NCBI GenBank assembly: GCA_965198285.1
Contig: OZ240251.1
Coordinates: 624,220 to 688,219 of the forward strand
Direction of reading: 5' to 3'
Source of the DNA: Chloroflexota bacterium
Lineage (GTDB): Bacteria > Chloroflexota > UBA11872
Length of the DNA: 64,000 nucleotides
A model generated the notes under the pieces. It was not told the DNA's origin. It saw only the letters and a program-made list of their open reading frames with translations, and ran no database searches. Made by a program: the position numbers and the translations under genes. Below, in pieces: positions 2,400 to 54,999 of the stretch (within the stretch, counting starts at the first letter, position 1; each line of letters opens with the position of its first letter).

Positions 2400-2432
2400 C
2401 CGGTGGCGCTGCTGCGCGGAAAGGGTATTGGC

Positions 2433-9886: not shown

Positions 9887-10001
9887 CCAGCCGGGCCGTC
9901 GGCGGTAGAGCGCTCCTTGGTCTGCGAACAGCAGCCCCCGTTTTGTGGGCGAGGGCGGCGACCCGTACGATCGCGGCGGCAACTTCTTCGGGAGGCGTGT
10001 G

Positions 10002-10469: not shown

Positions 10470-10627
10470 GACCCAGGGGCGTTCGTTGCCGTAGATCAGC
10501 ACGCCGCGGTTGACCTTGCCGTTCCTGACGGCGTCAGAGGCCTTGTTGGCCGCGCGCGCGAGTTGGCGGTCGAAGGCACCGCGGCCCGTGGGCGGGCCTT
10601 GATGCGGCGGCTGCGGCAGGCCGCGAC

Positions 10628-31547: not shown

Positions 31548-31820
31548 TTAGCCGCCGGCCACCGACGGCACGATCGACACCTCATCGCCCGGGCCGACTT
31601 CGGTGGCGAAGCCTTCCCGGTAGCGGATGTCCTCGCCGTCCACGTAGATGTTGACGAAACGCCGCAGTTCCCCGTCTTCGTCCAGGATGCGCTCGGAGAA
31701 TCCGGGGTGCGTGGCGTTCAGCTTTGCCACCAGGTCAGCGACGTTGGTGGCGTCGATCTCCACACTGTTCTTTCCGTCCGTCAGGCTGCGGAGCGGGGTT
31801 GGAATTCGGACACGGGGCAT
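31548..31820 (-). CDS. MoaD/ThiS-family sulfur carrier protein (C-terminal GG)
   Basis: 90 aa ending ...VSIVPSVAGG; beta-grasp sulfur carrier (CysO/MetO-like). Confidence 0.8.
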   Translation of the reverse strand: MPRVRIPTPLRSLTDGKNSVEIDATNVADLVAKLNATHPGFSERILDEDGELRRFVNIYVDGEDIRYREGFATEVGPGDEVSIVPSVAGG

Positions 31821-31840: not shown

Positions 31841-33088
31841 TTAGGCCGGCGTCAGCACGCCGCGGTCGGCCAGCGTCTGCTCGAACGACGTAATGCTCGG
31901 TCTGATCTCAAAGCGGGCGTCCACTCGGCCGTCGATGGCCTCCTGCGTCTTGAGCCCGTTGCCGGTCACCAGCGCCACCGTCAGGTCGTCCCGACCGATC
32001 ACGCCGCGCTCGGCAAGCTTGGCCAGCACCGCAATTGTGACGCCGCCGGCGGTCTCGGCAAAAACGCCCTCGGTGGAGGCCAGCAGTTGCATCGCCGCCA
32101 CGATCTCGTCGTCGGTGACCGACTCGATCACGCCATCCACCGCCTGCGCCAGCTTCAACGAGTAGAAGCCGTCCGCCGGGTTGCCGATCGCCAGCGACTT
32201 GGCCACGGTGTCGGGACGCCGCACGGGCCGGTAGGTGGTCTGGCCGCGCGCAAAGGCCTCGGCCACCGGCGCGCAGCCATCCGCCTGGGCGCCGTGGATG
32301 CGGGTGGACTGGCTATCCAGCAGCCCCACGTCCACCAACTCCTTCATGGCCTTCCCCATCTTGGTGTAGAGCGAGCCGGACGCGATCGGCGCCACGATGT
32401 GATCGGGCGCCACCCAGCCAAGCTGTTCCACCGACTCGAAGGCCAGTGTCTTGGAGCCTTCGGCGTAGTACGGGCGGATGTTGATGTTGCAGAAAGCCCA
32501 GTTATAGAGGTCGGCGATTTCGCTGCACAGCCGGTTCAGCTCGTCGTAGGTGCCGTCCACGGCCACGATGGCGGCCCCGTAGACCGCCGCCCCGCGCACC
32601 TTGCCAATCTCCAGGTCGGCCGGCATGAACACGTAGGTGGGCATGCCATGCCGCGCCCCGGCGGCGGACGCCGCCCCGGCCAGGTTGCCGGTGGAGGCAC
32701 ACGCGAAGGTCTCGAACCCGAACTCGCGGGCCTTCGTGATCGCCACCGCCACCACCCGGTCCTTGAAGGAGTAGGTGGGGTTGACGGTGTCGTTCTTGAT
32801 GTAGAGGTTGGTCAGGCCCAGCCGGTCGCCCAGGTTGTCCGCGCGCTGCAGCGGCGTGAACCCAACCGGCCAGGTCTCGTCCCAGCCCCCCTCCACCGGC
32901 AGCAACTCGTGGTAGCGCCACAGCGTGGGCGGCCGGGCGGCAATGGCATCGCGCGAGATGGTCTCGCGGATGGCGGCGTAATCGAACTGCGCTTCCAGCG
33001 GCCCGAAATCGAACTCGCAGATGTGCGTGGCCAGCAGCGGATAGGCGCGGCTGCACTCGCGACAGCGAAGCGTCTGAGTCGTGGACAT
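31841..33088 (-). CDS. threonine synthase-like PLP enzyme (MetM/ThrC-like)
   Basis: N-terminal Zn-ribbon-like CRECS...HICEF, then ...YIKNDTVNPTYSFKDRVVAV (PLP Lys)...GNLAGAASAAGARHGMPTYVFMP.... Located downstream of a SAM-I riboswitch. Confidence 0.8.
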   Translation of the reverse strand: MSTTQTLRCRECSRAYPLLATHICEFDFGPLEAQFDYAAIRETISRDAIAARPPTLWRYHELLPVEGGWDETWPVGFTPLQRADNLGDRLGLTNLYIKNDTVNPTYSFKDRVVAVAITKAREFGFETFACASTGNLAGAASAAGARHGMPTYVFMPADLEIGKVRGAAVYGAAIVAVDGTYDELNRLCSEIADLYNWAFCNINIRPYYAEGSKTLAFESVEQLGWVAPDHIVAPIASGSLYTKMGKAMKELVDVGLLDSQSTRIHGAQADGCAPVAEAFARGQTTYRPVRRPDTVAKSLAIGNPADGFYSLKLAQAVDGVIESVTDDEIVAAMQLLASTEGVFAETAGGVTIAVLAKLAERGVIGRDDLTVALVTGNGLKTQEAIDGRVDARFEIRPSITSFEQTLADRGVLTPA

Positions 33089-33293: not shown

Positions 33294-33412
33294 CCCTCTC
33301 ATCTTGCAGCACGCGCTGCCGGAATTGGCACCCTCTCGAGCGTTCGCCCGAAGGTTGCCCGGCTTCGTTGGGCCGACTCCCTCCACCAATCGTGATGAGA
33401 GGTATGTCACGT
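33294..33412 (-). promoter_or_regulatory. SAM-I (S-box) riboswitch
   Basis: Minus strand: CUCUCAUCACGAUUGGUGGAGGGAGUCGGCCCAACGAAGCCGGGCAACC...GGUGCCAAUUCCGGCAGCG...GCUGCAAGAUGAGAGG. This matches the SAM-I consensus helix by helix (P1 CUCUCAUC/GAUGAGAG, and GGUGCCAAUUCC) and lies ~200 nt upstream of the ThrC-like gene. Confidence 0.8.
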
Positions 33413-34614: not shown

Positions 34615-35832
34615 CTAGGCCTCCGTTCGGTGGCGCGCGAGGGGCATCACGCATGTCACGCTCGCCCCGCCGGTCGACCCTCGCGGTTCCACGCGCAGAC
34701 ATCCGCCCAGCCGCTCGGCGTCCGCCCGCATGTTGGCGAAGCCGTGGCCGCGGTCGGCGTAGTCGACGGGGAGACCCATGCCGTCGTCCGAGACCGACAA
34801 CCGGAGACGATCCTCGCCGAAGGCGAGTTCCACCAGCACCCGGCTCGCCTCCGCATGGCGAAACGCGTTGGTGAGGGCGTTGTGGGCCATGGCGAACAGC
34901 CGGTTCCTGGCCTCCACCGAGAGGGGTGGCTCCACCCCGTGCTGGGCCAGGTCCGCCTGGACCGATGTGATCTGGGTGAAGGTCGAGACGTGGGACTCCA
35001 GGGTCCTGCCCAGCCCCCGGCCGTCGAAGATCCGCCCCACGTCAATCGGGTGTCGCAGCTGCCAGATAGCCGTCTTCGACAGCTTGGCGGTCGCGTCCAG
35101 CCTGGTTTTCACCTCCGCGTTCGAGTCGCCGACCAGGCGCTGCACCTCGTCGATCCCCAGGCCGATCATGAACGCCGACTGCGCGGTCGTATCGTGAATG
35201 GCGTGGGAGAGTTCGATGCGCTCCCGCTGCAGCGCTCGCTCCCGCGCCACCGCCTCCATCCTCCTGATCCGCTCCACCCTGGAGATCAGATTGACGACAA
35301 CCACAACCAGGTACATCCCGGCAACCCGGATGAGCAGAATCTCTTCATCATTCCCTGAGACGTCCAACCCGGGCTCGACCGCGAGGCAGAGCGCGGTGTA
35401 GACGACCGCCGTCATCGTGACCCAGGCCAGCGCGAGCCGCACCGATCCGACGACCACCGCGAACATGGCCAGGCATGGGTAATACCCCACGAAGAAGGGG
35501 GTCTCGAACCCGCGGTGCGCCGCAACGCCGGCGCTGAGCAGCGCCAGGTCCAGGGCACTTGGCGCCAGCATCCACCGCCAGGACAGGGTCCCTTTCGTGG
35601 CGAGCCGATAGTGCAAGCATCCGTTGCTGGCGAGCAGCAGCAGGGCTAGGGCAACGTTCGGAGGATAGATCACCTCGGCGACGTTGAGTGGGTACAGCCA
35701 GGCGAACGTGGCCAGCGCCCAGACGAACCAGCGTGCCCAGACATACACCCTGGCCACGAGGCGCAATTCGCCCGGCTCCGGCAAGTCGAATCTGCGCAGG
35801 AAGGCTGGAAACCCGCTGGCCGCGGTGCTCAC
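34615..35832 (-). CDS. sensor histidine kinase (HisKA_3 / NarX-like), membrane-bound
   Basis: N-terminal transmembrane helices...LSHAIHDTTAQSAFMI (H-box)...HATPase_c region GDDGMGLP. Confidence 0.85.
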   Translation of the reverse strand: MSTAASGFPAFLRRFDLPEPGELRLVARVYVWARWFVWALATFAWLYPLNVAEVIYPPNVALALLLLASNGCLHYRLATKGTLSWRWMLAPSALDLALLSAGVAAHRGFETPFFVGYYPCLAMFAVVVGSVRLALAWVTMTAVVYTALCLAVEPGLDVSGNDEEILLIRVAGMYLVVVVVNLISRVERIRRMEAVARERALQRERIELSHAIHDTTAQSAFMIGLGIDEVQRLVGDSNAEVKTRLDATAKLSKTAIWQLRHPIDVGRIFDGRGLGRTLESHVSTFTQITSVQADLAQHGVEPPLSVEARNRLFAMAHNALTNAFRHAEASRVLVELAFGEDRLRLSVSDDGMGLPVDYADRGHGFANMRADAERLGGCLRVEPRGSTGGASVTCVMPLARHRTEA

Positions 35833-36403
35833 TCGATGCAGGACGTGTCTCCAATGGATTGGATTCCGGCGGATTGCCGCTGAAATGAGATATTTCCCTC
35901 TCCCCGGGGCGGTGGGCTCAGTCTCGAGTCGGTGACGGCCACCGCCGTGACACGGGCCATGTTGAGCCTGGACGAGGTGACGAACACCGCGAAGCAGGCC
36001 AACACCGGGTTGTACAGCAGGTGGATGCCGTGGTGGCCGAGACCGCCGCCCACCGCGGCGGCCCCGATACCACCGCCGTGTCCACCGCGGATTGCGCGAA
36101 GATCCAGCGCCAGGTGATCAGCCTTCCCGATGCCAGCCGGTAGTGCGGGCAGCCCGTGAACGCGACTAGGGCGAGAAACAGCAACGCATACGCGGCATAG
36201 GTGGCTGCCCCCCACGCCGGGCGGCAGACCAGTTGCACCAAGCACGTGGCGGCGAAGAACCAGTGGATCCGGACGAGCATGGTCGCCACGTGTCGGAGAC
36301 CGTCCGGGTCGGTCCGGTCGATCGTCCAGCCGCTGACCCGCACGGCGCCGGCGGCTGCTCTGATCAGCCGCAAGCCACGGGTCCTGTGGACCGACGCAAA
36401 CAT
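35829..36403 (-). pseudogene. frameshifted paralog of the sensor-kinase N-terminal membrane domain
   Basis: Two overlapping minus-strand ORFs in different frames (35918..36403 and 35829..36245) both resemble the transmembrane region of the adjacent kinase (...GCPHYRLASGRLITWRW... vs ...GCLHYRLATKGTLSWRW...). No kinase core follows. Confidence 0.4.
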
Positions 36404-37294: not shown

Positions 37295-40200
37295 ATGATG
37301 ATGACTGGCGCCGATAGACGACGATTTCCCATCATCATTGTCGCTCTGGCCGGCTTGGCGCTTGCCGTTGGGCTGTTCGCAACCCATGTCCCGCAGGCCC
37401 ACGCCCAGGGCGCCACCATAACCTCCCTGCTGTCCCGGCTGGACGTGGGAATTTCTGAGTCCGTTAATAACGGCTACCACACTCAGGCGGCAGGATACCG
37501 CCCGCCCCCTGCGACTAATCCAATTGGAACCCTGAGTCCCGCGGGATTCAACTACCCGGCGGGATTCGGCCCCTGGTACACGGTTGAGAAGCTTCTTCTG
37601 AGTCAGGAGGGACAAGCAAACGCTATCGCCCCGGGCATCCTTAGTTTTCACATACGCGGCACTGTGACTTCCGTTGCGAGTTCCGGCACGGAACGGGCGC
37701 GCGTTTTGCCAAAGGGTGCCGGCATCGAGCTTTACCTTGAGGGAGATGACTGGTCCAGAACCTATTCCCTGGACGACGCTACTACTAGAAGAGTTGGGAA
37801 CTGTCTCGACGAAGACGGAGATGATAGGGATTGCGAAGTTGGAGAGACTACCACGGAGGAATACGAGTGGGATGATGATGACAACCGACCTCCGTTGCTT
37901 GCCGACGGCGACAAGATCATCGTCCGCCTGACGTACTCGGCGCCGCGTGCGGCCAAGCCGGGGACGCCGACGGTTACGGCGCCGACGGGGAAGTCCGGGG
38001 CGCTGGTGGTGGAGTGGACCGCGCCCACGAACGACGATCCGAAGGTGCGCGGCTACGAGGTGCACGTGTCCCCTGCCGCCGGCGAGACGGAGGCCACCGG
38101 GGTGACCAGGACCACGGGCGGCTCCAACACGCGCCTGCCGGTGCTGCTGCTTGAGCCGGACACCGCCTACGACGTGAGAGTGCGGGCGCGCACATACTTT
38201 GCCTCGGGTCCCTGGTCGGAAACGGTGCGTGCCACGACCAATCCGCTGCAGGGAACGAACAATCCCTCAGTCACGCTGGACCTCGACGGCGTCACGAAAG
38301 TCAAGGTGGGAGACAAGTTGTACAAGCGGCTCAAGGTGACGGGGATGAACAACCTGCACGCCGGCGCGTTCCCGGACAGGTTCGAGGGCCATCGCCAGAT
38401 CCACAACGTGGAGTTCCGGGTGCTGGACAGGATCCATGACTCGTACGTGTACGAAGACCTCACGCACGGCGATGGAGAAGGCGCCTTCTACGCCGGCGCC
38501 CTGACCATCGGTGAGGACGGGGAGGTGTACCACAACTTCGGGTACGAGGTGATTGCCGAGGGCCGGGCCGAGGGCGAAAAAGGAGATGGAGCGCCGGAAT
38601 ACGGGCCGTTGTACCTCTGGCTGGAGAGCACGACGGGCGTTGTCCAGATCGGCAGCACAGCCAATTCGCGCGCAACGGCGCTGTGCGTGGAGATCGCCGA
38701 CGACTCGAACATGGTCCCGACCGACCGTACCTGCTCCACGGGCGGGTCGGCGGGCCACGCGGTGGACCGGCTGACGGGCCGCTTCGTGAACGTCCCCCAG
38801 TCCCACGACGGTGAGAGCGAGTTCACCGTGCGGCTGGCCTTCGTCGAGGACGTGGGCATAAGCCCCGAATCGCTGCGCGAGGACGCGCTCGCGGCGACCG
38901 GGGGCGCGGTCACCCGGGTGCAGCGGGTGGACGACCGCAGCGACCTGTTCGAGATCACGGTGGAGCCGGACTCCGACGAGGACGTGACGATCACGCTGTC
39001 GTCGAGTGGAGACTGCGGCGAATCCGGATCGATCTGCACCCAGGAGGAGGACCCCAGGAAGCTTTACAACAGCCCGACTGCGACGGTGGCGGGTCCCATC
39101 CTGACGGCGAGCTTCCAGGGCCTGCCGTCGCAGCATGACGGGGAGACGGCGTTCAGCTTCAGGATCGCGTTCAGCGACGAGATAGCGACCGAAGAGGAGG
39201 AGTTCCGGGACCACAGCGTGGAGGTGTGGGGCGGCGAGGTGACACGGGCCGAGCCGGTGGGCCAGCGGCGCGACCTCTGGGAAGTCGAGGTCGAGCCGGC
39301 CTCGGAGGACTCGGTGATGGTCTCGCTCAAGCTGACGCAGTCCTGCGCTGCCACGGGCGCGGTGTGCACGGCGGGCGGGCGGCTCCTGTCGGTGGTCCCC
39401 GCAACGATGGTGCCCGGCCCGGCGACCTGGCCGGTGCGGGTCACCGGCGAGGCGCAGGTGGGGAAGACCCTGACCGCGGACTCGTCGAACCTCTCCGAGC
39501 GGTACGGCGTGCAGGTCACCTCCATGACCTACCGGTGGCTGGCCGATGGCGCCCGCATACCGGGGGCCAACGCCCGAACCTACCAGCCGGACGATGACAA
39601 GCAGGGCAAGAGAATCAGCGTGATGGCGACCTACACCGACGACCGGGGCAACGAGGAGACGGTGATCAGCGCGCCCACCGAGCCGCTGGCGGCCAGGGAC
39701 CGCATCAGGCGGGCCACGGGCCTGCCGCTGATCAGCGGCAGGGCGCTGGTGGGGCATACGCTGACAGCGGACACGTCGCTCATCATCGACCCTAACGGCC
39801 TGGAGAATGCCGTCTTCTACTACTTCTGGGAGGCGGACGACGACAGCATCCCGGATGCGACCGACTCTACGTACACGCCGGTGGAAGCCGACGTGGGCAA
39901 GGAAATCACTTTCATAGTGGCTTGGGTTGACGACGCTGGCCACGGACAGAACATGACCAGCCAGCCGACGATGCCGGTGATGACGGCCGAGGCCGCGGCG
40001 GCGGTGGAGTTCCGCAAGAGTCTCAGGGTCGCGGCGAATGCCGACGGGTCGGTGACCCTGTACTGGAACGCGCCCGATGAGGATGTGACCGGTTACCGGA
40101 TATTGCGCCACCGCCATTCGCTGGGCGAGCTCGATCCGCTGGTGTACGTGGCGGACACGGGCAGCACGGCGACCGCCTACACCGACACCGGTATGGTTGC

Positions 40201-43200
40201 GGGCGTGCCGCACAACTACCGCGTACAGGCCATCAGGGACGGGGTGCTGGGCGAACGGACCATACAGATCAAAATCTTCCCGGTGAGGAAGGCAACCAAC
40301 AGCCCGGCCACCGGCGCGCCCGCCATCAGCGGAACGGCGCAGGTGGGAGAGACGCTGACGGCGGACATCTCCGGCATCGCCGACGAGGATGGGCTGGAGA
40401 ACGTGACCAAGAATTATCTGTGGGCGGCAATCGGCAGCAGCGGCAAAATCGGCGCCAAGTACGCCTACCAGTGGCTGGCCGACGGCGCGGAGAGCGGTAC
40501 GGGCCAACACCATGCAGGCTATGACAATACGACCTACACCCTGGCGGAAGACGACGAGGGCAAGGCCATCAGCGTGCGGGTGACTTTCGTTGACGACGGG
40601 GGCCACCAGGAGACGCTCACCAGCGCGGCAACGGACCCGGTGGCGGCGCTGCCCCAGCCCAACAGCCCGGCCACCGGCGCGCCCGCCATCACTGGAACGG
40701 CCCAGGTGGGCGAGACGCTGACGGTGGACACGTCGGGCATCACCGACGAGGACGGGCTGGACGATTCCAGCTTCACCGTCCAATGGATAACGGACGATTC
40801 AGTCATGGTCGCCAACGCCGCCAGGTCCTACACCCCGACCGACGGCGACCGGGGCAAGTCCGTCAAGGTGCGGGTGAGCTTCACCGACGACGCGGGCAAC
40901 CCGGAGACCCGCACCAGCGCACAGACGGCGACGGTGGAGGCTCGGGCCAACTCCCCTGCGACCGGCCTGCCAACCATCAGCGGGACCGCCCAGGTGGGTG
41001 AGACGCTGACGGCGGACACCACCGGCATCGCCGACGCGGACGGGCTCACCAACGTCGGCTACACCTACCAATGGCTTGCCGACGACGCTGAAATCGCCGG
41101 TGCTACCGGCTTGACCTACACCCTCGTAGACGCCGACCAGGGCAAGTCCGTCAAGGTCAGAGTGACCTTCACCGACGGTGGCGGCAACGAGGAGACCCTG
41201 ACCAGCGCGCCGACCGCCTCGGTGGAGGCAAACCCCAACAACCCGGCCACCGGAGCGCCGACCATCATCGGCACCGCCCAGGTGGGCGAGACGCTGACGG
41301 CGGACACGTCGGGGATTGCGGATGGGGACGGGCTTTCCAACGTGGTCTATAGCTACCAGTGGGTATCCAGTGACGGAACAACCGATACGGATATAGAGAA
41401 GGCGACCGCCTCGACCTACACCCTCGTAGACGCCGACCAGGGCAAGGCCATAAAGGTCAGAGTGACCTTCACCGACGGCGGCGGCAGCGAGGAGACCCTG
41501 ACCAGCGCGCCCACGGGTCCCGTGTTTAGCGACGGCCCGCCGGGAGTGCCCCGCAACCTCACCGCCACCGCCGGAAACAAGGAGGTAACCCTGTCCTGGG
41601 ACCCGCCCGCCGACAACGGCAACGCGCCCGCAACGGGATACCGCATCGAGTGGAGGATCGACGGCAAGGACTACGACAAGAACATTTGGGGCACAGCGCG
41701 AAGTACCACCTATACGACGAACGACCAGGCCAATCTGGCCAATGGAGTCAAGTACTTCTTCCGGGTAAGGGCCGGGAACGGCAGCGGCAACCGCCAGGGA
41801 CCATACGGCCCGGCCTCCGGGGAGGTGAGCGCCACTCCCACGTCCGGCTCGGCGGTGGACCTGGGCACGCCGGTGCTGTCGAACACGGAAACCCTGCATC
41901 ACGGCATGGTGAGGCTGGACTGGGAGGACATAGAGGACGCCGGTTGGTACGTGGTCCAGTACTACGACGTCAGAGGTGGGGAGTGGTTGGACCTGCCCGC
42001 CGAGGGAGTGGACGTCGCGTTCCACGGATCAAGCGCGGTGGTGAGCAACCTGCATGGGCTCTCGTGGCTGCGGGTTGGTGCGATGAGCTGTGCCGGAGCA
42101 TCGGAGTGGTCGCAAATCGAGCAGCTGTTCGGGACCAACGCATCGGACTGGGACGGCGTGCCTGTACCGGAGGTGGAAGCAGGCGACGAGATCGAACCAT
42201 GCCCCGTGGACCTGGGCACGCCGGTGCTGTCGAACACGGAAACCCTGCACCACGGCATGGTGCAGCTGGACTGGCAGGCCATAGAGGACGCCGGTTGGTA
42301 CGTGGTCCAGTACTACGACGTCAGAGGTGGGGAGTGGTTGGACCTGCCCGCCGAGGGAGTGGACATCGCGCTCCATGGATCAAGCGCGGTGGTGAGCAAC
42401 CTGCATGGGCTCTCGTGGCTGCGGGTTGGTGCGGCCAGCTGCGACGGGGCATCGGAGTGGTCGCAGATCGAGGAGTTGTACGGGACCAATGCATCGGACT
42501 GGGAGGGCGTGCCCGTGCCCGAGGTGGCGGAGGGCGACGAGATCGAGCCATGCTCAGAAGACGCGGACACATCTGACAACAGCCCGGCCACGGGCGCGCC
42601 CACCATCAGCGGGACTGCGCGGGTAGGTGAGGTGCTGGAAGTGGACACGTCGAGCATCGCCGACGCGGACGGGTTCACCAACGCTGCCTTCACTTACCAG
42701 TGGCTTGCCGACGACTCCGAAATCGCAGGCGCTACCGGCTCCACATACACCCTGACCGATAGCGAAGAAAGCAAGGCCATCAAGGTGGAGGTGTCCTTCA
42801 CCGACGATGCCGATAACGAGGAGACGCTTACCAGCGCAGCGACAGCGGTGGTGGCGGCCAAGCCGAACTCTCCTGCCACGGGAGCGCCCACCATCAGCGG
42901 CACGGTCCAAGTCGGAGAGACCCTGACGGCGAACACGTCGGGAGTCATCGACGCAGACGGGCTTAGCAACATCCAGTACGAGTACCAGTGGCTGGCCGAC
43001 GACGCCGACATATCGGGAGCGACCAACGCCACCTACACCCTGGCAGCAGCCGACGAGGGCAAGGTCATCAAGGTTCGGGTGAGTTTCACCGACGGCGCGG
43101 GCAACGAGGAGACGCTGACCAGCGCGGCCACGGACGCGGTGGCGGCAGAGCCCCAGACCAATTCTCCCGCCACCGGAGCGCCAACCATCACCGGCACGGT

Positions 43201-43756
43201 CCAGGTGGGGGAGACGCTGACCGCGAACACGTCGGGCATCGCCGACGCCGACGGGCTTAGCAACGTCCAGTACGAGTACCAGTGGCTGGCCAGCGACTCG
43301 GACATATCGGGAGCGACCAACGCCACCTACACCCTGGCAGCAGCCGACGAGGGCAAGGTCATCAAGGTTCGGGTGAGCTTCACCGACGATGCGGGCAATG
43401 AGGAGACGCTGACCAGCGCGGCAACGGGCGCGGTGGCAGCGGCGGAGCCATCGGAGCCTCCCGCCAAGCCCAGGGGCCTCGAAGCCACGGCGACCCACGG
43501 CCAGGTGATCCTTACCTGGGACGACCCCCAGGACGACAGCATCACCGGCTACGTGATCCTGCGCCGCGTGCGGGTGAACGATACCGGGGGCGACTTCGAT
43601 GTATTGGTCTCGGACACGGGCAGCGCCGCCGCCACCTACACCGACGACATGGTGGCGGCCGGCATTACCTACACCTACCGCATCAAGGCCATCAACGGGG
43701 CCGGAACGAGCGACCGTTCCCGCTGGTACCACATCGACACCCCCGCCGCGCCGTAA
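37295..43756 (+). CDS. giant secreted repeat protein (2153 aa): signal peptide, FN3 domains, two ~110-aa HDGE(T/S)xF repeats, ~9 Ig-like ~95-aa repeats, two ~110-aa DLGTPVLSNTETLHHG repeats, C-terminal FN3
   Basis: Good RBS (GGGAGGAA) before ATG 37295. Signal RRRFPIIIVALAGLALAVGLFATHVPQAHA. Repeats of NSPATGAPTISGTAQVGETLTADTSGIADADGL...YQWLADD...GKxIKVRVTFTDxxGNEETLTSA recur about every 285 nt from ~39400 to 43440. The protein ends ...RSRWYHIDTPAAP. Confidence 0.85.
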   Translation: MMMTGADRRRFPIIIVALAGLALAVGLFATHVPQAHAQGATITSLLSRLDVGISESVNNGYHTQAAGYRPPPATNPIGTLSPAGFNYPAGFGPWYTVEKLLLSQEGQANAIAPGILSFHIRGTVTSVASSGTERARVLPKGAGIELYLEGDDWSRTYSLDDATTRRVGNCLDEDGDDRDCEVGETTTEEYEWDDDDNRPPLLADGDKIIVRLTYSAPRAAKPGTPTVTAPTGKSGALVVEWTAPTNDDPKVRGYEVHVSPAAGETEATGVTRTTGGSNTRLPVLLLEPDTAYDVRVRARTYFASGPWSETVRATTNPLQGTNNPSVTLDLDGVTKVKVGDKLYKRLKVTGMNNLHAGAFPDRFEGHRQIHNVEFRVLDRIHDSYVYEDLTHGDGEGAFYAGALTIGEDGEVYHNFGYEVIAEGRAEGEKGDGAPEYGPLYLWLESTTGVVQIGSTANSRATALCVEIADDSNMVPTDRTCSTGGSAGHAVDRLTGRFVNVPQSHDGESEFTVRLAFVEDVGISPESLREDALAATGGAVTRVQRVDDRSDLFEITVEPDSDEDVTITLSSSGDCGESGSICTQEEDPRKLYNSPTATVAGPILTASFQGLPSQHDGETAFSFRIAFSDEIATEEEEFRDHSVEVWGGEVTRAEPVGQRRDLWEVEVEPASEDSVMVSLKLTQSCAATGAVCTAGGRLLSVVPATMVPGPATWPVRVTGEAQVGKTLTADSSNLSERYGVQVTSMTYRWLADGARIPGANARTYQPDDDKQGKRISVMATYTDDRGNEETVISAPTEPLAARDRIRRATGLPLISGRALVGHTLTADTSLIIDPNGLENAVFYYFWEADDDSIPDATDSTYTPVEADVGKEITFIVAWVDDAGHGQNMTSQPTMPVMTAEAAAAVEFRKSLRVAANADGSVTLYWNAPDEDVTGYRILRHRHSLGELDPLVYVADTGSTATAYTDTGMVAGVPHNYRVQAIRDGVLGERTIQIKIFPVRKATNSPATGAPAISGTAQVGETLTADISGIADEDGLENVTKNYLWAAIGSSGKIGAKYAYQWLADGAESGTGQHHAGYDNTTYTLAEDDEGKAISVRVTFVDDGGHQETLTSAATDPVAALPQPNSPATGAPAITGTAQVGETLTVDTSGITDEDGLDDSSFTVQWITDDSVMVANAARSYTPTDGDRGKSVKVRVSFTDDAGNPETRTSAQTATVEARANSPATGLPTISGTAQVGETLTADTTGIADADGLTNVGYTYQWLADDAEIAGATGLTYTLVDADQGKSVKVRVTFTDGGGNEETLTSAPTASVEANPNNPATGAPTIIGTAQVGETLTADTSGIADGDGLSNVVYSYQWVSSDGTTDTDIEKATASTYTLVDADQGKAIKVRVTFTDGGGSEETLTSAPTGPVFSDGPPGVPRNLTATAGNKEVTLSWDPPADNGNAPATGYRIEWRIDGKDYDKNIWGTARSTTYTTNDQANLANGVKYFFRVRAGNGSGNRQGPYGPASGEVSATPTSGSAVDLGTPVLSNTETLHHGMVRLDWEDIEDAGWYVVQYYDVRGGEWLDLPAEGVDVAFHGSSAVVSNLHGLSWLRVGAMSCAGASEWSQIEQLFGTNASDWDGVPVPEVEAGDEIEPCPVDLGTPVLSNTETLHHGMVQLDWQAIEDAGWYVVQYYDVRGGEWLDLPAEGVDIALHGSSAVVSNLHGLSWLRVGAASCDGASEWSQIEELYGTNASDWEGVPVPEVAEGDEIEPCSEDADTSDNSPATGAPTISGTARVGEVLEVDTSSIADADGFTNAAFTYQWLADDSEIAGATGSTYTLTDSEESKAIKVEVSFTDDADNEETLTSAATAVVAAKPNSPATGAPTISGTVQVGETLTANTSGVIDADGLSNIQYEYQWLADDADISGATNATYTLAAADEGKVIKVRVSFTDGAGNEETLTSAATDAVAAEPQTNSPATGAPTITGTVQVGETLTANTSGIADADGLSNVQYEYQWLASDSDISGATNATYTLAAADEGKVIKVRVSFTDDAGNEETLTSAATGAVAAAEPSEPPAKPRGLEATATHGQVILTWDDPQDDSITGYVILRRVRVNDTGGDFDVLVSDTGSAAATYTDDMVAAGITYTYRIKAINGAGTSDRSRWYHIDTPAAP

Positions 43757-44105
43757 GCGACCTCCGTCGCCGGCGGCAACGCGAACGACCAGGCTGAGCC
43801 AGGCGGGCAGGACGATCCCGCCGTCGCGCCCGGCCACGCCACGCCCGGCGGTTCCGGCAAGAGGGCGATCGGCTCCGAGGTCGGCGCCGACCAGCGCGCC
43901 AACGGCCCCGCGCAGGTGACCATCGTGGCGGACCAGAATGTGTTCACCGCGCAACTCGACAACGTGAGCTTCACGTTGACCCGCACGGGCAATACGGACG
44001 CGGCGCTGGACGGTCGCGGTCACGCTGACGCAGGACCTGGAACTGTTCACGCCTGAGTACCTTCCGTAGAGCGTGCAGTTGGAGGCGGATTCGTCTTCCC
44101 GCGGC
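43757..44105 (+). pseudogene. decayed C-terminal extension of giant gene 1, homologous to giant gene 2 residues after its 4th FN3
   Basis: Right after the TAA of gene 1 the same frame reads ATSVAGGNANDQAEPGGQDDPAVAPGHATPGGSGKRAIGSEVGADQRANGPAQVTIVADQNVFTAQLDNVSFTLTRTGNTDAAL.... This is ~90% nt identical to 45565..45895 of gene 2 (PAAP-Q-ATFTEANDQAEQSGQDDP...). The TAA corresponds to CAG in gene 2, and a 1-nt indel near 44010 then shifts the frame. Confidence 0.6.
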
Positions 44106-44318
44106 GCTCAGTGCGGCGCTAGGAGGATTCGGGCCAGCGGTGGGCCACATCAGCTCTCGCCGGCCGTACCACCGGGCACCGATCGTCAGTCAACGAAGCG
44201 TGCGGTCGGCACTGGCCGGCGCGCCCATGGATGTGCCGCATTGCTTCTCAACTGGCTCCGTGCGGCTTGTGCGCTGGCGCTAGTGCTGGGAGACACGACT
44301 CTTGGCATTCACGCATTT

Positions 44319-44453
44319 CGTCGTCCGCCATAGGGGCATCCGAACCGTGCGGAATAGGGCATTTGTACCCTATATCGAGATATAAATACTTATGCAAAGA
44401 GATATAAGTACCCTATTAGATGTGTTGTTAGTCGCTTGTTAGAGGCATGCAAT
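44319..44453. promoter_or_regulatory. AT-rich element upstream of giant gene 2, homologous to the element upstream of gene 1
   Basis: ATAGGGGCAT...ATAGGGCATTTGTACCCTAT (TAGGG-N8-CCCTA palindrome), direct repeats GATATAAATAC/GAGATATAAGTAC, and ATGTGTTGTTAGTCGCTTGTTAGAGGCATGCA (44420..44451). It lies ~105 nt before ATG 44558. Confidence 0.5.
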
Positions 44454-44557
44454 AAAAGGTAATCTGTTGTTCCAGCAGATTTCAGGCTCGTCTGCTGGCC
44501 GTCGACCGCTGGGCGCTTGGCCCATCGACATTCATCGGGCTGTCTGGTGGAGGAACC

Positions 44558-47500
44558 ATGCCCCGCAGCGATCGACGACGTTTCCTCATCCTGATTGCCG
44601 CCCTGGCCGCGCTGGCCCTGCTCGTCGCCCCGGCGCAGGCCCAGGAGGGCGCCGCGCCGGACAAGCCCACGGGGCTTGTGGCCACCGCCTGGCGCGACCA
44701 GGTGGTGCTGACCTGGGACGACCCGCAGGACGACAGCATCACGGGCTACGTGATCCTGCGCCGCAACCGCAAGACCACCGTCGAGGGCCAGTTCAGCGAG
44801 CTGGCGCCGGACACGGGCAGCGCCGCCACCACCTACACCGACGCCAGCGTGACGGCCAGGACGCCCTACACCTACCGCATCAAGGCCCTCAACGAGCACG
44901 GCGTCAGCGAGCGCTCCCGCTGGTTTCACATCGACACCCCGGCGGCCCCGGAGAGGGTGCAGGCTGCCAGACTGCCAGCCAAGCCCAGGAGCCTGACCGC
45001 CGAGGTCACCCACGCCTCGGTGACGCTGACCTGGCGGGACCCGCAGGACGATTCCATCACCGGCTACGTGATCCTGCGCCGCGACAAGGCCATCCACCAG
45101 GTGGGAACCTTCGAGACCGTGGCGTCGGACACTGGCTCGGCGGGTGCCACCTACACCGACGCCACGGTGCAGCCGGACAAGCAGTACGTGTATCGCATCA
45201 AGGCGATCAACGCCGCCGGGCTGAGCGAGATCTCCAGTTGGGTGCGGGCCTACACGCCCTCAGTGCCCCTACCCGCCAAGCCCACGGGCCTCACCGCCAC
45301 GCCGTCCCACGACCGGGTGGTGCTGACCTGGAACGACCCCAACGACGCCAGCATCACCGGCTACGTGATCCTGCGCCGCACTCCCGGGGTCGACCCGGAG
45401 GGCCAGTTCGACGAGCTGGTGGCGGACACGGGCACGGCCGCCACCACCTACACCGACGACACCGTGGCGGCGGAGACTCGCTACACCTACCGCATCAAGG
45501 CCATCAACGAGTACGGGGTCAGCGAGCGCTCACGCTGGTTCCACATCAACCCCCCCGCCGCGCCGCAGGCGACCTTCACCGAAGCTAACGACCAGGCTGA
45601 GCAAAGCGGGCAGGACGATCCCGCCGGCGCGCCCGGCGGTTCCGGCAAGAAGGCGATCGGCTCCGAGGTCGGCGCCGACCAGCGCGCCAACGGCCCCGCG
45701 CAGGTGACCATCGTGGCGGACCAGGATGTGTTCACCGCGCAGCTCGACAACGTGAGCTTCACGTTGACCCGCACGGGCAATACGGACGCGGCGCTGACGG
45801 TCTCGGTCACGCTGACGCAGGACCTGGAACTGTTCACGCCTGAGTACCTTCCGCGCAGCGTGCAGTTCGAGGCGGATTCCGACACCGCGCCGCTCATTGT
45901 CTATCCCGGCGCGGTGTCGGAAGTCCACGAGGTGACGCAAGTCACCACGCTCACGGCCACGGTGGCCACCGGAACGGGCTACACACCGGGCTCGCCGGCA
46001 TCGGCGAGCACGCGGATCCTGGTGATCGACCCGGCCGTCACGGTGCGGATCGAGGAGGCCACCTACAGGTTCGACGAACACGCCACGGGCGCCGCGACGG
46101 CCGTACACGTGGTCGCTCGCACCGCATCCGGAGTGCCGTCGCCGAATACGGCGGTCTTTGCTTCCCTCAACTTGAGAGACCGAACGGCCGTGGGCAGCGG
46201 GGTCGACTACCAACGCCTGTCGGAGGTGGTGTCGTTCGAGCCGTCGGATTTCACTGCGGACGGACAGGTGTTCACGGCCCGCAAGGCGGTGCAGCTGGCG
46301 CTCGTCGACGACACGATCGCAGAGATGGACGAGACCATCGAGGTGTTGCTGGAGTACGCCCCGGGGCCGGCGGGGGTGATCGCGCTCAGGTTGTCCGACG
46401 GCACGACGTGTCCCCAGAACAGATGCACCTCGACGGTCACCATTGCCGACAACGACACGCCGCGGGTAACGACGCCCACCGTCACATCCGTGGTGGTCGC
46501 GTCCGCGCCGCAATCGGGGAACACCTACCGCTGGGGCGAGACGATCCTATTCACGGTCACCTTCAGCGAGCCGGTGCGGGTCACCGGCCGGCCGGCGCTC
46601 GAGGTCGGGCTCGACAGTGCCGCCGGGGGCGCCGTGCAGGCTCGCTTCGCGGGCCTCACGGCGACCCAGCGGCCGACCGTCGGCACCTGGCCGGTCCCCG
46701 TCAGCCAACACGTGCATTTCGCCTACACGGTGCAGCCGTCCGACCGTGACGCCGACGGCATCCGCATCGGTGTCAACGCGCTGCGACTCGCCTCCGCGGA
46801 CCGGATCCGGAGCGGCGAGACCGGTGCCGCCGCGGAGCTCGCCCATGCCGCGCTCGGCCCGCGGACCGGCCACCGGGTCGACGGCCAGCCGGCGGCGCCG
46901 GTGGCGAGCGCCGGGATCGAGATCGTCGATACGAACGGCCTTCTGCTCGAGACGCTGGCGGACGGGTCGCGCCGCCTGTGGGTGCCGGAGGGCGGCTCGG
47001 CGCGCTACGGGCTCAAGCTCGATAGCCGGCCGGCGCACCGGGTGGTGGTGTCACACCACTACATGTACCAGGGCGATCCCGACCTCGCCGTGCCGCGCAA
47101 CTTCACAGTCGACCGGTCCATCGCGCCGGACGAGTGGAGAACCAAGACAGTCTGGATAAGCGTCCGGGCGGCGCAGGACGCCGATGCGGAGAACGGCCAG
47201 CGGGTCTTCGCCAACAACTCGATGAGCCGGGACCCGAACTATCACCACCTGGTGCTTCCCGACGTGATCGCGGTCGAGGCCGACGACGAGCCGGCCTGCA
47301 CGCTGAACCTCGGCGACCTGTGGTGCGGCGTAATCACGCCGGGGAAAGTGGCACTGCCTGGAGTGGGAGGCTTTAGTGGATTCACCGCCTATCTCGGCGG
47401 ACTGTCCGACGACACGGGCGACCAGAGCTTCACCTACGGAACGAACACGTACACGGTTACTCAAGTTATTAATGAGAGAGGAATTGGCGGCACCGTCCTT

Positions 47501-47692
47501 CAGTTCGGTCTGAGCAGCCCCCTTACTGACGCCGAGCAGGCAAACCTGGTCCTGCATGTCGGCAACGACTCATTCGCGTTCAGCGATGCGGACATTCTTG
47601 GTCTTGTCTACCTATGGGAAAGCACTATGGACTGGTCCAGCCTGGACTACGTCGTCGTGCGGCTGCGTTTTCCCCCCGTGCCGCAGGGATGA
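44558..47692 (+). CDS. large secreted FN3-repeat protein (1044 aa) with C-terminal beta-sandwich/Calx-like region
   Basis: RBS GGTGGAGGA; signal RRRFLILIAALAALALLVAPAQA. Four FN3 repeats each contain LTWxDPQDDSITGYVILRR...YTYRIKAxN...SRWFHIDTPAAP, with the same FN3 flavour as gene 1. Confidence 0.85.
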   Translation: MPRSDRRRFLILIAALAALALLVAPAQAQEGAAPDKPTGLVATAWRDQVVLTWDDPQDDSITGYVILRRNRKTTVEGQFSELAPDTGSAATTYTDASVTARTPYTYRIKALNEHGVSERSRWFHIDTPAAPERVQAARLPAKPRSLTAEVTHASVTLTWRDPQDDSITGYVILRRDKAIHQVGTFETVASDTGSAGATYTDATVQPDKQYVYRIKAINAAGLSEISSWVRAYTPSVPLPAKPTGLTATPSHDRVVLTWNDPNDASITGYVILRRTPGVDPEGQFDELVADTGTAATTYTDDTVAAETRYTYRIKAINEYGVSERSRWFHINPPAAPQATFTEANDQAEQSGQDDPAGAPGGSGKKAIGSEVGADQRANGPAQVTIVADQDVFTAQLDNVSFTLTRTGNTDAALTVSVTLTQDLELFTPEYLPRSVQFEADSDTAPLIVYPGAVSEVHEVTQVTTLTATVATGTGYTPGSPASASTRILVIDPAVTVRIEEATYRFDEHATGAATAVHVVARTASGVPSPNTAVFASLNLRDRTAVGSGVDYQRLSEVVSFEPSDFTADGQVFTARKAVQLALVDDTIAEMDETIEVLLEYAPGPAGVIALRLSDGTTCPQNRCTSTVTIADNDTPRVTTPTVTSVVVASAPQSGNTYRWGETILFTVTFSEPVRVTGRPALEVGLDSAAGGAVQARFAGLTATQRPTVGTWPVPVSQHVHFAYTVQPSDRDADGIRIGVNALRLASADRIRSGETGAAAELAHAALGPRTGHRVDGQPAAPVASAGIEIVDTNGLLLETLADGSRRLWVPEGGSARYGLKLDSRPAHRVVVSHHYMYQGDPDLAVPRNFTVDRSIAPDEWRTKTVWISVRAAQDADAENGQRVFANNSMSRDPNYHHLVLPDVIAVEADDEPACTLNLGDLWCGVITPGKVALPGVGGFSGFTAYLGGLSDDTGDQSFTYGTNTYTVTQVINERGIGGTVLQFGLSSPLTDAEQANLVLHVGNDSFAFSDADILGLVYLWESTMDWSSLDYVVVRLRFPPVPQG

Positions 47693-48433
47693 CGCCCGGC
47701 TGACCGTCACGGCCGATGCGGCCGGCGCCCGCGACCTGGCGGTCGGCGGCCTCTCGCAGGGCTCCGGGATGGGCTGACTGCGGGCGCTTGGATCCGTTCG
47801 AGGAGGACTCCGGTCTGTCGTGCTCGGACCAGAACCGCCGTCTGGACACGCATCCCGAAACCGTGAGGCGCTGGAGGGACTAGGGCGTGCGGCCCAGGGC
47901 GCGTCACCGCATGATGGCGCATTTGAAGCTGCCTGACTCGCTGGGCCTCGGGCGCGGGCGCCGGCAGCCCCTGACGCTGCCAATGGCGTCGTCGGCTCGA
48001 CGCCGGCTCAGGCCAGCGATCCCAACGGCCTGACCAGCTAGCCGCCGACGGTCGATGCGCCGGTCCATCCGCTGGTGCTACGCAGGTCGCACCGCTGCCG
48101 CTTCCCGCTGCGTCGGGAAAGTGCCTGGGACGACCCGCCGGCCCGTGCTACGATAGGCGACTGCCTGAAAAGGCATCCGCGCATTTCGGCGGCGCTTGAT
48201 TCATCAGCCGCCCCCGGCAGCGCACCGGCGGAATCCGCTGGGCGCGGGCGCGACGGCACCTTAACAGGGGAAGAGTGAGTGTGAGTGCTCGCGTCATTCC
48301 ATAGTGTCTGGCGCGACGGTAGATCCACGTGATTGAGGACGACTCGGTGGCTCTGGGGTCCGGCCCAGCCGGTGCCCCGGGGATATTGCGATCTATTCAC
48401 GCCGTTATCGGCGTGTTGTGAGATTGATTTGGC

Positions 48434-49948
<1,515 letters not shown>

Positions 49949-50128: not shown

Positions 50129-50455
50129 GGAGCGTCGGGCCGGTCAGGCGGCCGCTCCGGTTCACGCCGGAGAGGAAAGTCCGCACTTCACAGAGCGCGG
50201 TAGCGGGTAACACCCGTCGCCCAAGTCGGTTCACGCCGGCAAGGGCCGGAACAGGGGCACAGTGACGATGCCCACGCCCCCAGCCGGGGGCGCGGGAGTG
50301 AAACGGCTAACCTCTACCTGAAGCAAGGCCAAGTCGGGACGCCACCAGGCTGCTCGCCCAGTCCCAGGTAGGCTGCACGAGGCCGGCGGCAACGCCGGTC
50401 CCAGATAGATGGCCGCCCACGACAGAATGCGGCTTATCGACCGGTCCGACGCTCT
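50129..50455 (+). ncRNA. rnpB: RNase P RNA (bacterial type A)
   Basis: GGAGAGGAAAGTCCG (P4/CR-I)...GGTAACACC...AGCAAGGCCAA...GGTAGGCTGC...CCAGATAGATGGCCGCCCACGACAGAATGCGGCTTATCG (CR-IV/V); P1 pairing GAGCGTCGGGCCGGT / ACCGGTCCGACGCTC. Strong similarity to E. coli M1 RNA motifs. Confidence 0.85.
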
Positions 50456-50581: not shown

Positions 50582-50656
<75 letters not shown>

Positions 50657-50870
50657 CTATTCCCTACGCGAGGCGACCTCTTGGGTACCGCTCTTTTACA
50701 GCGCCCGCAGGCTGGCTTCGAGGCGCTGCTAGGTATTTCCGATTGACCAGAGGAGCCCCGTAGCTCACCGTCTCGCAACTCCATCGCTCGAACGATAGGT
50801 GACCGACGAAAGACGACAAGGCGATAGATTCCGATATAGTTGGATGATTTCGTACTTCCACGGGGACAGG

Positions 50871-51125
50871 GTGGCGCAGGTCAAGAAGAGCATCACTGTG
50901 ACGGATCGCCAGGAACAGTGGATCAGGGCGCAGATCGCGAGCGGCGAATACGGGAGTGACAGCGAGTATGTCCGTGACTTAATCCGTCGCGATCAGGACC
51001 AGAACGCGGCCTTCCGGGACTTGACGGCGGCAATTCAGAAAGGTCTGGCGAGCGGTATGAGCGACAAGCCGGTGAAGGAGGTTTGGGCGGAAGCGGAGCA
51101 ACGCTACCGAGCTAGGCATGGCTGA
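50871..51125 (+). CDS. parD: ParD-family antitoxin (RHH)
   Basis: VAQVKKSITVTDRQEQWIRAQIASGEYGSDSEYVRDLIRRDQDQNAAF...; GTG start; overlaps parE. Confidence 0.7.
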   Translation: MAQVKKSITVTDRQEQWIRAQIASGEYGSDSEYVRDLIRRDQDQNAAFRDLTAAIQKGLASGMSDKPVKEVWAEAEQRYRARHG

Positions 51126-51417
51126 CTTCCGTCTGTCCGCCCGCGCTGATGCCGATCTCGCCGGGATCGCCAACTACACGATCGAGACATTCGGCATCGA
51201 ACCGGCTCGCCAGTATCGGGACGCTCTGGAAGCTTGCTTTCATAATCTTGTGTGGAACCCGCATTTGGGTCGCAGCGTGAAACGGCTTGCGCCTAGCCTG
51301 CGGCGCTTCCAACTCCAGTCGTATGCGGTCTGTGCGACGCGGACCATGAGGGTATTCTGCTCGTCCGCATATGTTTCTTATGACACGTCGCCTTACAGAC
51401 ACAAAGCAACGTGCTAG
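51118..51417 (+). CDS. parE: ParE/RelE-family toxin (C-terminus possibly frameshifted)
   Basis: MADFRLSARADADLAGIANYTIETFGIEPARQYRDALEACFHNLVWNPHLGRSVKRLAPSLRRFQLQSY.... The canonical C-terminal ...DDGxEILRVLH-like motif (CDADHEGILLVRI) is found in the +2 frame, ending at 51383. Confidence 0.5.
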   Translation: MADFRLSARADADLAGIANYTIETFGIEPARQYRDALEACFHNLVWNPHLGRSVKRLAPSLRRFQLQSYAVCATRTMRVFCSSAYVSYDTSPYRHKATC

Positions 51418-53078: not shown

Positions 53079-53169
53079 AGTATGACAATCGAACGTCAGA
53101 ATATGAATATTTGCGTTACTTTCAGTGCAAGGACGGCCACGGCATACGCAAGCCTGTGCGTCTGCGTAC

Positions 53170-53197
53170 TTGATATCGTTGCCGTAGTGTGTATAAT
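53170..53197 (+). promoter_or_regulatory. sigma70-like promoter (TTGATA-16-TATAAT) driving a leaderless hicA
   Basis: TTGATA 53170..53175 and TATAAT 53192..53197; the GTG start at 53205 is 7 nt past the -10 box. Confidence 0.5.
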
Positions 53198-53204
53198 ACA
53201 TACA

Positions 53205-53330
53205 GTGGATAGGCGGGAAGTTCTGCGCCTGCTCCGTCGCGACGGCTGGCTGCTCAGGAACGCAAGGGGTAGCCATCACCAGTTCACGCATCCTGACAAG
53301 CCTGGGCGCGTCACGGTCAAGCACCCGTAA
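53205..53330 (+). CDS. hicA: HicA-family toxin, truncated by an in-frame TAA
   Basis: VDRREVLRLLRRDGWLLRNARGSHHQFTHPDKPGRVTVKHP-[TAA]-RDISIGTLRSIFRQAGWNWKER-[TAA]. The 21 codons after the stop continue in the same frame and match the usual HicA C-terminal tail; the second TAA overlaps the hicB ATG. Confidence 0.55.
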   Translation: MDRREVLRLLRRDGWLLRNARGSHHQFTHPDKPGRVTVKHP

Positions 53331-53398
53331 CGGGACATATCGATCGGCACGCTACGGAGCATCTTCCGTCAGGCTGGTTGGAATTGGAAGGAACGCTA

Positions 53399-54886: not shown

Positions 54887-54999
54887 GCCACGATCGTAAA
54901 CCGGCGCAGGGGGCAGACACATGCGGATGCATCGGGCGGGCACCCATGGCACAGCGTGAAGGAGGAGCCGTTGGATGCGAATCGACGCGCAGCGGACCC

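Follow-up and report, generated by a model that had tools for sequence, protein, structure and literature searches.

A pair of neighbouring genes for giant proteins was found in a stretch of 64,000 nucleotides from a Chloroflexota bacterium (GTDB lineage UBA11872; GenBank assembly GCA_965198285.1, contig OZ240251.1, positions 624,220 to 688,219 of the forward strand), which we call the window. Gene 1 (37295..43756, + strand) encodes 2153 amino acids (aa) and gene 2 (44558..47692, + strand) encodes 1044 aa. Both are uninterrupted open reading frames (ORFs), over 6.5 kb and 3.1 kb, respectively, in a genome with a G+C content of 67%. We think that they probably code for secreted, rod-like proteins of the adhesin type, which belong to an expanded and module-shuffled family of Dehalococcoidia. 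The architecture of both proteins, the family around them, the shuffling of its modules and the variation of gene 1 between strains are directly visible in the sequences compared here.

In gene 1, a signal peptide is followed by a domain that we call HEAD, a fibronectin type III (FN3) domain, the module M320, two HDGE repeats, two immunoglobulin (Ig)-like repeats, FN3, four Ig-like repeats, FN3, two DLG repeats, three Ig-like repeats and a terminal FN3. The signal peptide (37295..37405, aa 1-37, MMMTGADRRRFPIIIVALAGLALAVGLFATHVPQAHA then Q38) has an AxA motif before Q38 and hydrophobic windows at aa 9-15 and following (Kyte-Doolittle 1.9-2.6). HEAD (37406..37969, aa 38-225) is an all-beta domain with a Cys pair (170/180), which belongs to no Pfam family and is hypervariable across strains. 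M320 (38246..38770, aa 318-492; Cys 464/480) is likewise unassigned, strain-variable and without a Pfam match, and its AlphaFold2 model is poor (predicted local distance difference test, pLDDT, ~45-70). It accompanies HEAD in 41 proteins and is 57-80% identical to its relatives. The two HDGE(S/T)xF repeats (38771..39421, aa 493-601 and 603-709) have one Cys pair each and are 36-39% identical to each other in self-comparison. This module is present in 115-120 copies across 79-82 related proteins, and a word-based search with the pair retrieved 22 unnamed metagenome proteins, none of them annotated. The HDGE profile found no credible relative among PDB sequences, and Pfam gave a faint hint of Big_12 (E 0.009 in two of 11 members).

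The nine Ig-like repeats of ~95 aa begin at aa 709, 807, 1002, 1123, 1219, 1315, 1762, 1858 and 1955 in self-comparison. They form three groups: repeats 1-2 (39422..39985, aa 710-897; matches to both ZirU_fam and IG_AIR9), repeats 3-6 (40292..41530, aa 1000-1412; period of 288 bp and 2.9 copies by Tandem Repeats Finder) and repeats 7-9 (42575..43450, aa 1761-2052; 294 bp, 2.7 copies by the same program). Together, they match NCBIfam ZirU_fam (NF040485) with 212 bits in 8 stretches (cut-off 100) and Pfam IG_AIR9 (PF23197) with 39.4 bits (cut-off 27.5). Among PDB sequences, they match phage T4 Hoc (5vf3, E 1.6e-4) and a phage tail protein (9c2d, 1.4e-6). Pfam fn3 (PF00041, gathering cut-off 25) is found in gene 1 with 118 bits in 4 stretches. 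The first FN3 (37970..38245, aa 226-317) has PDB matches to neogenin and contactin FN3 domains over aa 218-321. The second (39986..40270, aa 898-992) matches Fibcon and Fn3-like entries at aa 907-985, and the third (41531..41800, aa 1413-1502), which contains the best Pfam stretch (aa 1419-1500), matches titin FN3 domains to 3e-10. The terminal FN3, which ends with the TAA stop (43451..43756, aa 2053-2153), is of the LTWDDPQDD flavour and is 65% identical to the first and 70% to the third FN3 of gene 2. The two DLGTPVLSNTE repeats (41801..42574; aa 1503-1623 and 1625-1759 within the region aa 1503-1760), each with a Cys pair, appear also in the DNA as a 351-bp period of 2.0 copies with 91% matches (Tandem Repeats Finder). 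They have no Pfam match, and a small local FN3 HMM gave 5-7 bits. Nevertheless, alignment of the DLG profile with the FN3 profile (hhalign, 89.3%, E 2e-6, 71 columns) suggests that this repeat is probably a divergent FN3-like domain.

Gene 2 consists of a signal peptide, three FN3 domains, an acidic linker, M380, a Calx-beta-like module, M640, M795 and a tail domain. The signal peptide (44558..44641, aa 1-28, MPRSDRRRFLILIAALAALALLVAPAQA then Q) shows AxA and RRxFL motifs. The three FN3 domains (44657..45565, aa 34-336), again of the LTWDDPQDD flavour, reach 89 bits in 3 stretches with Pfam fn3 and 2.4e-27 with titin in PDB. M380 (aa 378-489), without a Pfam match, and the Calx-beta-like module (aa 490-637) lie together at 45689..46468. 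Calx-beta (PF03160) scores 23.2 bits with the whole protein and 27.1 bits with the isolated segment of aa 490-640, against a cut-off of 27. This family is also recorded in precomputed annotation of the gene 2 orthologs P0045-P0047, and the unit of aa 380-640 is duplicated in P0045 and P0052. M640 (46469..46939, aa 638-794), with a DxDxDG-like motif (SDRDADGIRIG), is a widespread and unannotated module of ~155 aa, which we found in 176 copies in 90 proteins, at 55-66% identity across dozens of proteins and in tandem in many. Neither its profile nor its members gave any match in Pfam or PDB. M795 (46940..47269, aa 795-904) is present in 20 related proteins and has no Pfam match. The tail domain (47270..47692, aa 905-1044; Cys 914/923) is located N-terminally or internally in relatives. 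It is possibly related to HEAD, as far as profile alignment tells: hhalign gave 80.5% with one alignment pair and 14.9% with larger alignments. The window segments of HEAD, M320, HDGE, DLG, M380, M640, M795 and the tail matched nothing in Pfam even at E<=1, and NCBIfam returned nothing besides ZirU_fam for the two whole proteins.

An earlier reading of this DNA, made from the letters alone (hereafter the sequence-only reading), had described two neighbouring giant ORFs built of FN3 and Ig-like domains. Their coordinates, strand and lengths were reproduced here, and both fold assignments are upheld by the Pfam, NCBIfam and PDB matches. The two HDGE(T/S)xF repeats of ~110 aa, the roughly nine Ig-like repeats and the two further DLGTPVLSNTE repeats that it listed in gene 1 were all recovered, the first by self-comparison, the second as nine copies with family matches and the last in both protein and DNA. 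It also had both proteins open with a signal peptide and FN3 domains of one flavour. This is true of gene 2, whereas in gene 1 the signal peptide is followed by HEAD. The LTWDDPQDDSITGYVILRR type of FN3, which it placed at the start of gene 1, is in fact the last domain, and the first FN3 is of another flavour. The Calx-beta-like C-terminal half proposed for gene 2 is reduced to a borderline score at aa ~490-600. HEAD, the gene remnant described below and the fact that most of the modules other than FN3 and Ig match no Pfam family had been missed.

To place the pair in its family, we collected homologs, all of which come from metagenome assemblies and are named only 'fibronectin type III domain-containing protein' or 'hypothetical protein'. 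The assembly index contained no exact copy of the gene 1 product. A scan of species-representative genomes gave 38 loci, nearly all labelled 'MAG: Dehalococcoidia bacterium' (MAG, metagenome-assembled genome), with two from Tepidiformaceae and two from Ca. Latescibacterota. For a module census, twelve module sequences were compared with the stop-to-stop ORFs of 42 loci and with the collected related proteins. The same ~10 modules recur in many orders in dozens of ORFs of 1000-4000 aa, most of which finish with FN3-FN3 and a conserved C-terminus (...RSRW(F/Y)HIDTPAAP). In paralogs, the same head and FN3 modules are fused to arrays of leucine-rich repeats (LRR), to cadherin-like domains or to a sulfatase. 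A single ORF of 3227 aa in L022 has the order HEAD-M320-HDGE2-Ig2-FN3-Ig3-DLG2-Ig8-FN3-FN3, and L016 shows this order as far as its contig extends. Because both loci keep it, the module order of gene 1 is a conserved architecture and not an accident of assembly. The ORF of L022 (Tepidiformaceae MAG, 956-10636) additionally contains Lysyl_oxidase (PF01186, E 1.4e-12) at aa 2370-2499 inside its Ig array, a domain that is absent from the window protein; lysyl oxidases are cross-linking enzymes of the animal matrix.

The two Ca. Latescibacterota relatives (L017, 9461-12928; L025, 9401-12280) have FN3 domains 60-62% identical to those of gene 2, combined with LRR or PPC and a C-terminal FlgD_ig domain. 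We read these FlgD_ig tails, from domain assignment, as putative sorting domains of the type IX secretion system (T9SS). If so, the family would be extracellular cargo equipped with sorting signals appropriate to each lineage, of which the Dehalococcoidia versions have none. The similarity of these FN3 domains suggests exchange of FN3 modules between phyla, with sorting signals specific to each lineage.

Comparison with L001, a circular contig of 3.74 Mb from the same species, revealed where gene 1 varies. L001 is syntenic with the window, and the flanks are 96-98% identical in nucleotide sequence. Codons 493-2052 of gene 1 show dS (synonymous divergence) <=0.09 and 95-100% aa identity between the two; codons 1-492 show dS of 0.17-0.90 and 49-85% aa identity. 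The high dS in this 5' part, combined with a ratio of nonsynonymous to synonymous divergence (dN/dS) of 0.5-0.8, indicates that the 5' cassette was replaced by a divergent allele or paralog. HEAD and M320 are the least conserved parts also in comparison with other long relatives. Moreover, gene 1 of L001 has an additional cadherin-like domain ahead of HEAD, and the comparison of copy number across related genomes that the sequence-only reading had proposed gave a difference of one unit, an additional Ig-FN3 that L001 has towards the 3' end.

A further trace of recombination is located just past the stop codon of gene 1, where 43757..44099 (+ strand) resembles gene 2 codons 337-443, namely the linker and the start of the first Calx-like module. 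In blastx against gene 2, aa identity is 70% in frame past the stop and 83% after a change to another frame; the region contains one frameshift and one internal stop, and where gene 1 has its TAA stop, gene 2 has a CAG codon (Q337) in the alignment. Since the homology continues past the stop, this region is a decayed duplicate, and the 3' end of gene 1 derives from a gene 2-like gene. We take this alignment as direct evidence that FN3 modules serve as recombination joints.

The variable HEAD was modelled separately. AlphaFold2 with 38 family sequences gave a confident all-beta model of HEAD alone (pLDDT 87.6, predicted template modelling score 0.83), although the first 720 residues of gene 1 outside HEAD were modelled poorly. 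A Foldseek search with the 720-aa model was dropped as evidence about HEAD, because it returned generic FN3 chains only. With the HEAD model itself, Foldseek found nothing significant (all E>=0.046, TM<0.3). A HMMER scan of 1.84 billion cluster representatives detected HEAD in 19 clusters only. Judged from the model and these searches, HEAD appears to be a new domain of ~185 aa, nearly confined to its lineage and without a solved structural relative. An idea of variable loops on a constant core was abandoned, being unsupported at the resolution of positional entropy, which is equal for strands and loops (1.13 and 1.12 bits).

The top Foldseek matches of HEAD, weak and not significant, are lectins and carbohydrate-binding modules (CBMs). 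They would fit an alternative in which the proteins are substrate-capture scaffolds, whose terminal modules act as CBMs and keep polysaccharides, dissolved or from the sponge, close to the cell so that they can be degraded. Proteins active on polysaccharides often contain FN3, Ig and Calx-beta spacers, and L003 is a relative that joins Ig/FN3 with Sulfatase/SGSH_C domains. Attachment genes have been tied to the use of glycosaminoglycans and sialic acid (PMC8163846). However, no CBM or lectin family matched at any threshold, the E values and TM scores of the HEAD matches are those given above, and Pfam detects no catalytic domain in either window protein. We therefore regard this function as improbable.

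Faint best structural matches of HEAD to the peptide-binding TRAF/MATH domains of eukaryotes lead to a bolder idea about its role. HEAD and M320 might be a lineage-restricted recognition cassette swapped by recombination, in which paralogous heads exchanged between strains would retarget a constant Ig/FN3 stalk. Such a cassette might serve as a variable system for recognition of hosts or partners in symbiotic Dehalococcoidia, possibly by mimicking or engaging immune adaptors of the host. The MATH/TRAF-C domains of TRAF6, TRAF1, TRAF3, USP7 and SPOP were among the comparison systems, and neither a structural score at the level of homology nor a sequence-family match places HEAD in this group. 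We offer this idea as speculation with a small chance of being right.

Secretion of the two proteins is suggested by their N-termini, in which signal peptides and cleavage sites were assigned from hydrophobicity and the -3/-1 rule. Across paralogs and genomes (many ORFs of L004-L023), the n-region M(M/L)TRTDRRRFP(I/V)L is nearly invariant. DRRRFPI in gene 1 and DRRRFLI in gene 2 fit the RRxF(L) motif of the twin-arginine translocation (Tat) pathway, but the h-regions are strongly hydrophobic (Kyte-Doolittle 2.4-2.6) and more Sec-like. We consider Sec to be the more likely export route of both proteins, with Tat as a possible one. A Tat-like n-region motif is unusual for proteins of 1000-3700 aa.

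Beyond the signal peptides, 19-aa windows (Kyte-Doolittle) detect no hydrophobic segment in either protein. Both are acidic, with D+E of 14.7% against K+R of 6.5% in gene 1 and 11.8% against 7.9% in gene 2. Cysteines occur as intramodule pairs only, and the first is at aa 170 in gene 1 and aa 618 in gene 2. The acidic composition, the paired Cys and the single N-terminal hydrophobic segment fit extracellular disulfide-bonded rods without a known anchor. Indeed, motif and hydrophobicity analysis found neither LPXTG with a C-terminal hydrophobic window nor a PEP motif in the two proteins, whose C-termini are ...HIDTPAAP and ...RLRFPPVPQG, in agreement with the sequence-only reading, which had noted the lack of LPXTG and PEP-CTERM anchors. 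There is no lipobox cysteine at the end of either signal peptide. Pfam detected in neither protein RTX repeats (PF00353), which would go with another route than the N-terminal signal peptide that both have, nor a T9SS-type C-terminal domain (Por_Secre_tail/FlgD_ig), and Pfam and NCBIfam gave no match to S-layer homology (SLH) or surface layer (S-layer) families.

Alternatively, the proteins might be structural components of the envelope, such as an S-layer, a sheath or a surface coat, covering the cell rather than binding a partner. They are predicted to be secreted and are acidic, all-beta and repetitive, and the FN3 domains conserved at an end of most members of the family could serve for attachment close to the envelope. 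Moreover, cultured Dehalococcoidia have proteinaceous S-layers. However, the negative result with SLH and S-layer families stands against this explanation, and dozens of differently shuffled paralogs per lineage, a strain-variable head and a nonsense allele in the sister strain are unlike a single essential lattice protein. We consider an envelope component to be unlikely.

Of the two options that the sequence-only reading had named, adhesin or S-layer-associated surface protein, the first is the more reasonable and the S-layer part finds no family match. The adhesin or surface reading is the most reasonable because the proteins are predicted to be secreted, acidic and all-beta with intramodule Cys pairs, because their relatives carry LRR and cadherin-like modules or FlgD_ig tails, and because FN3 proteins are reported to be enriched in sponge-associated Chloroflexota (PMC8163846). 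As a working model of these adhesin-type proteins, the cleavable N-terminal signal peptide would export each of them, most likely through Sec. Outside the cell, the independent beta-sandwich modules of each protein, stabilised by disulfides within modules, would fold into a long and acidic rod. The repeated Ig-like and FN3 modules would make up its stalk or spacer, and the candidates for ligand binding are the terminal modules that are not repeated, HEAD and M320 in gene 1 and M640, M795 and the tail in gene 2. Putative targets are the host matrix, host cells or other microbes. Since neither protein has a known anchor, any retention on the surface would have to be non-covalent. Recombination at the repeated modules may replace the head cassette, add or remove Ig-FN3 units and leave gene fragments behind.

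Several observations weigh against this model. In L001, an in-frame stop takes the place of Y763 of gene 1 (ANART*QPDD, compared with ANARTYQPDD in the window; L001 12400-12700). Many database homologs are truncated by frameshifts and have garbage tails, and because of this truncation their short lengths are uninformative. Such stops and frameshifts may reflect decay in parts of the family or errors in the assemblies. The dN/dS of the head does not exceed 1, and positive selection is not demonstrated. The sequence and structure searches found no recognisable ligand-binding relative of HEAD. As no anchor was found, the proteins may just be released from the cell. Finally, we infer the sponge association of the lineage from the naming style of the MAGs, one 'Langseth' MAG title and the content of LRR, FN3 and cadherin domains, and not from sample metadata.

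Part of this evidence raises the question whether the ORFs are functional proteins at all, or a partial artefact or decaying gene, made of collapsed or mis-joined repeats or pseudogenes. The repeats are 75-91% identical at the DNA level, one Ig-FN3 unit of L001 is missing from the window, and a gene fragment lies just past gene 1; the stop in L001 and the frameshifted tails of the homologs point in the same direction. However, both ORFs are unbroken over their whole length in this genome of 67% G+C, and the module order is equal in L001, L016 and L022. Gene 2 is 95-98% identical, with the same length of 1044 aa, in L001 and P0046, and dN/dS is below 1 in every segment with measurable dS. On this balance an artefact or decaying gene is very improbable, and we keep to adhesin-type proteins.

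The genes around the pair are ordinary chromosomal ones, including pheT, an ABC transporter, gamma-glutamyltranspeptidase and a HisKA_3/LuxR two-component pair. Two candidates were dropped because the neighbours looked at are chromosomal housekeeping genes, namely a diversity-generating retroelement and a phage origin of the Hoc-like Ig repeats. A scan for promoters and terminators in 36.4-48.5 kb gave nothing exceeding shuffled sequence. Directly upstream of the HisKA_3 kinase gene (34618-35832, - strand) is an ORF for a membrane protein of 161 aa (35921-36403, - strand) without a Pfam match, which resembles, by eye, the N-terminal membrane region of the kinase. In L001, the kinase, the LuxR-type regulator and a gene for 190 aa at the corresponding position adjoin gene 1, and in L003 a gene of the HEAD type lies ~8 kb from a similar kinase-regulator pair. 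A complete bacterial 16S rRNA gene (48426-49946) begins 730 bp past gene 2, followed by RNase P RNA (50136-50452) and tRNA-Met (50582-50656). No 23S match was reported within the whole window, and the 16S gene appears unlinked from 23S. Just past this cluster, ParD/ParE and HicA/HicB toxin-antitoxin pairs (50799-51414 and 53082-53803) lie in a stretch with G+C of 0.56-0.61, and this low-G+C stretch may be a small integrated island beside tRNA-Met.

Farther away in the window, a SAM (S-adenosylmethionine) riboswitch (77 bits; 33296-33401, - strand) is located upstream of genes for a pyridoxal phosphate-dependent enzyme (31844-33088, - strand) and a ThiS-family sulfur carrier (31551-31820, - strand). 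Three DUF3179 paralogs are present (5182-6639, 6501-7964, and 53900-55045 on the - strand), and the listed ORFs of the first two, which are adjacent, overlap by ~140 bp. Two adjacent tRNAs at 61686-61840 have odd anticodons according to ARAGORN (Ser with ACT, and a four-base TGCA), and both are confirmed by Rfam (66 and 40 bits).

If our interpretation is true, the pair would be a concrete and well-resolved example of the FN3/Ig-rich attachment proteins, which have hitherto been reported mainly as domain counts. It would show how such proteins are built (~ten shuffled modules), which part varies (HEAD-M320), how they change, and that they lack every standard anchor. HEAD, M320, HDGE, M640 and M795 are candidate new domain families for curation, and HEAD, as a defined and confidently modelled domain, could be expressed and tested for binding. 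The locus by itself opens no long-standing question.

The adhesin reading agrees with the literature, according to which sponge-associated MAGs are enriched in genes for FN3 domains; these genes abound in Chloroflexota in particular, are laterally transferred and have been read as attachment factors (Robbins et al., 2021, PMC8163846; see also PMC9531527 and Kamke et al., 2014, PMC3909097). The window pair is similar to the FN3/cadherin/Ig/LRR attachment proteins of sponge symbionts in that the proteins are multi-FN3 and predicted to be secreted, paralogs add cadherin-like, LRR and Calx-beta domains, the family is expanded and apparently exchanged across phyla, and the taxon is the same FN3-rich one, Chloroflexota. 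It differs in that the known class is defined by domain counts only, and the sponge origin of the window is our own deduction. The cited sponge-symbiont literature contains no description of the architecture of gene 1 or gene 2, of the HEAD, M320, HDGE and M640 modules or of head-cassette replacement.

Gene 1 also resembles the giant, repeat-rich adhesins of Gram-negative bacteria (types LapA, SiiE and MpIBP), which combine arrays of BIg/Ig-like spacers with ligand-binding modules at the end, in its length of more than 2000 aa, its long array of ~95-aa Ig-like extenders and its non-repeated end modules, and the window proteins share with them the acidic composition, Ca-binding-like DxDG motifs and variable repeat copy number. 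Those adhesins leave the cell C-terminus first by type I secretion, contain RTX repeats and remain fixed in TolC-like pores. In contrast, the window proteins have an N-terminal signal peptide, no RTX match and no retention module, and the putative head of gene 1 is N-terminal. Similarity to Salmonella ZirU/ZirS exists at the module level only, where the Ig-like module of gene 1 is homologous (ZirU_fam match). ZirU, a single protein of small size, is exported through its outer-membrane partner ZirT, whereas the 2153-aa protein of gene 1, from a Chloroflexota bacterium, has the Ig module as one among ten kinds. No gene for a ZirT-like exporter is present among the neighbours looked at, which are mostly housekeeping genes, the 16S rRNA gene and the two-component system, so a ZirTSU system was not recognised. 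Likewise, sequence similarity to phage T4 Hoc and to the A9 Ig-like domains of plant and protist AIR9 is at the domain level only, and gene 1 has no phage context. The kind of protein is already known, as the adhesin-like FN3/Ig/cadherin type of sponge-associated Chloroflexota, and the novelty is at the level of the member and its modules: several domain families without annotation, a head cassette that varies and is swapped, and the lack of every standard anchor.

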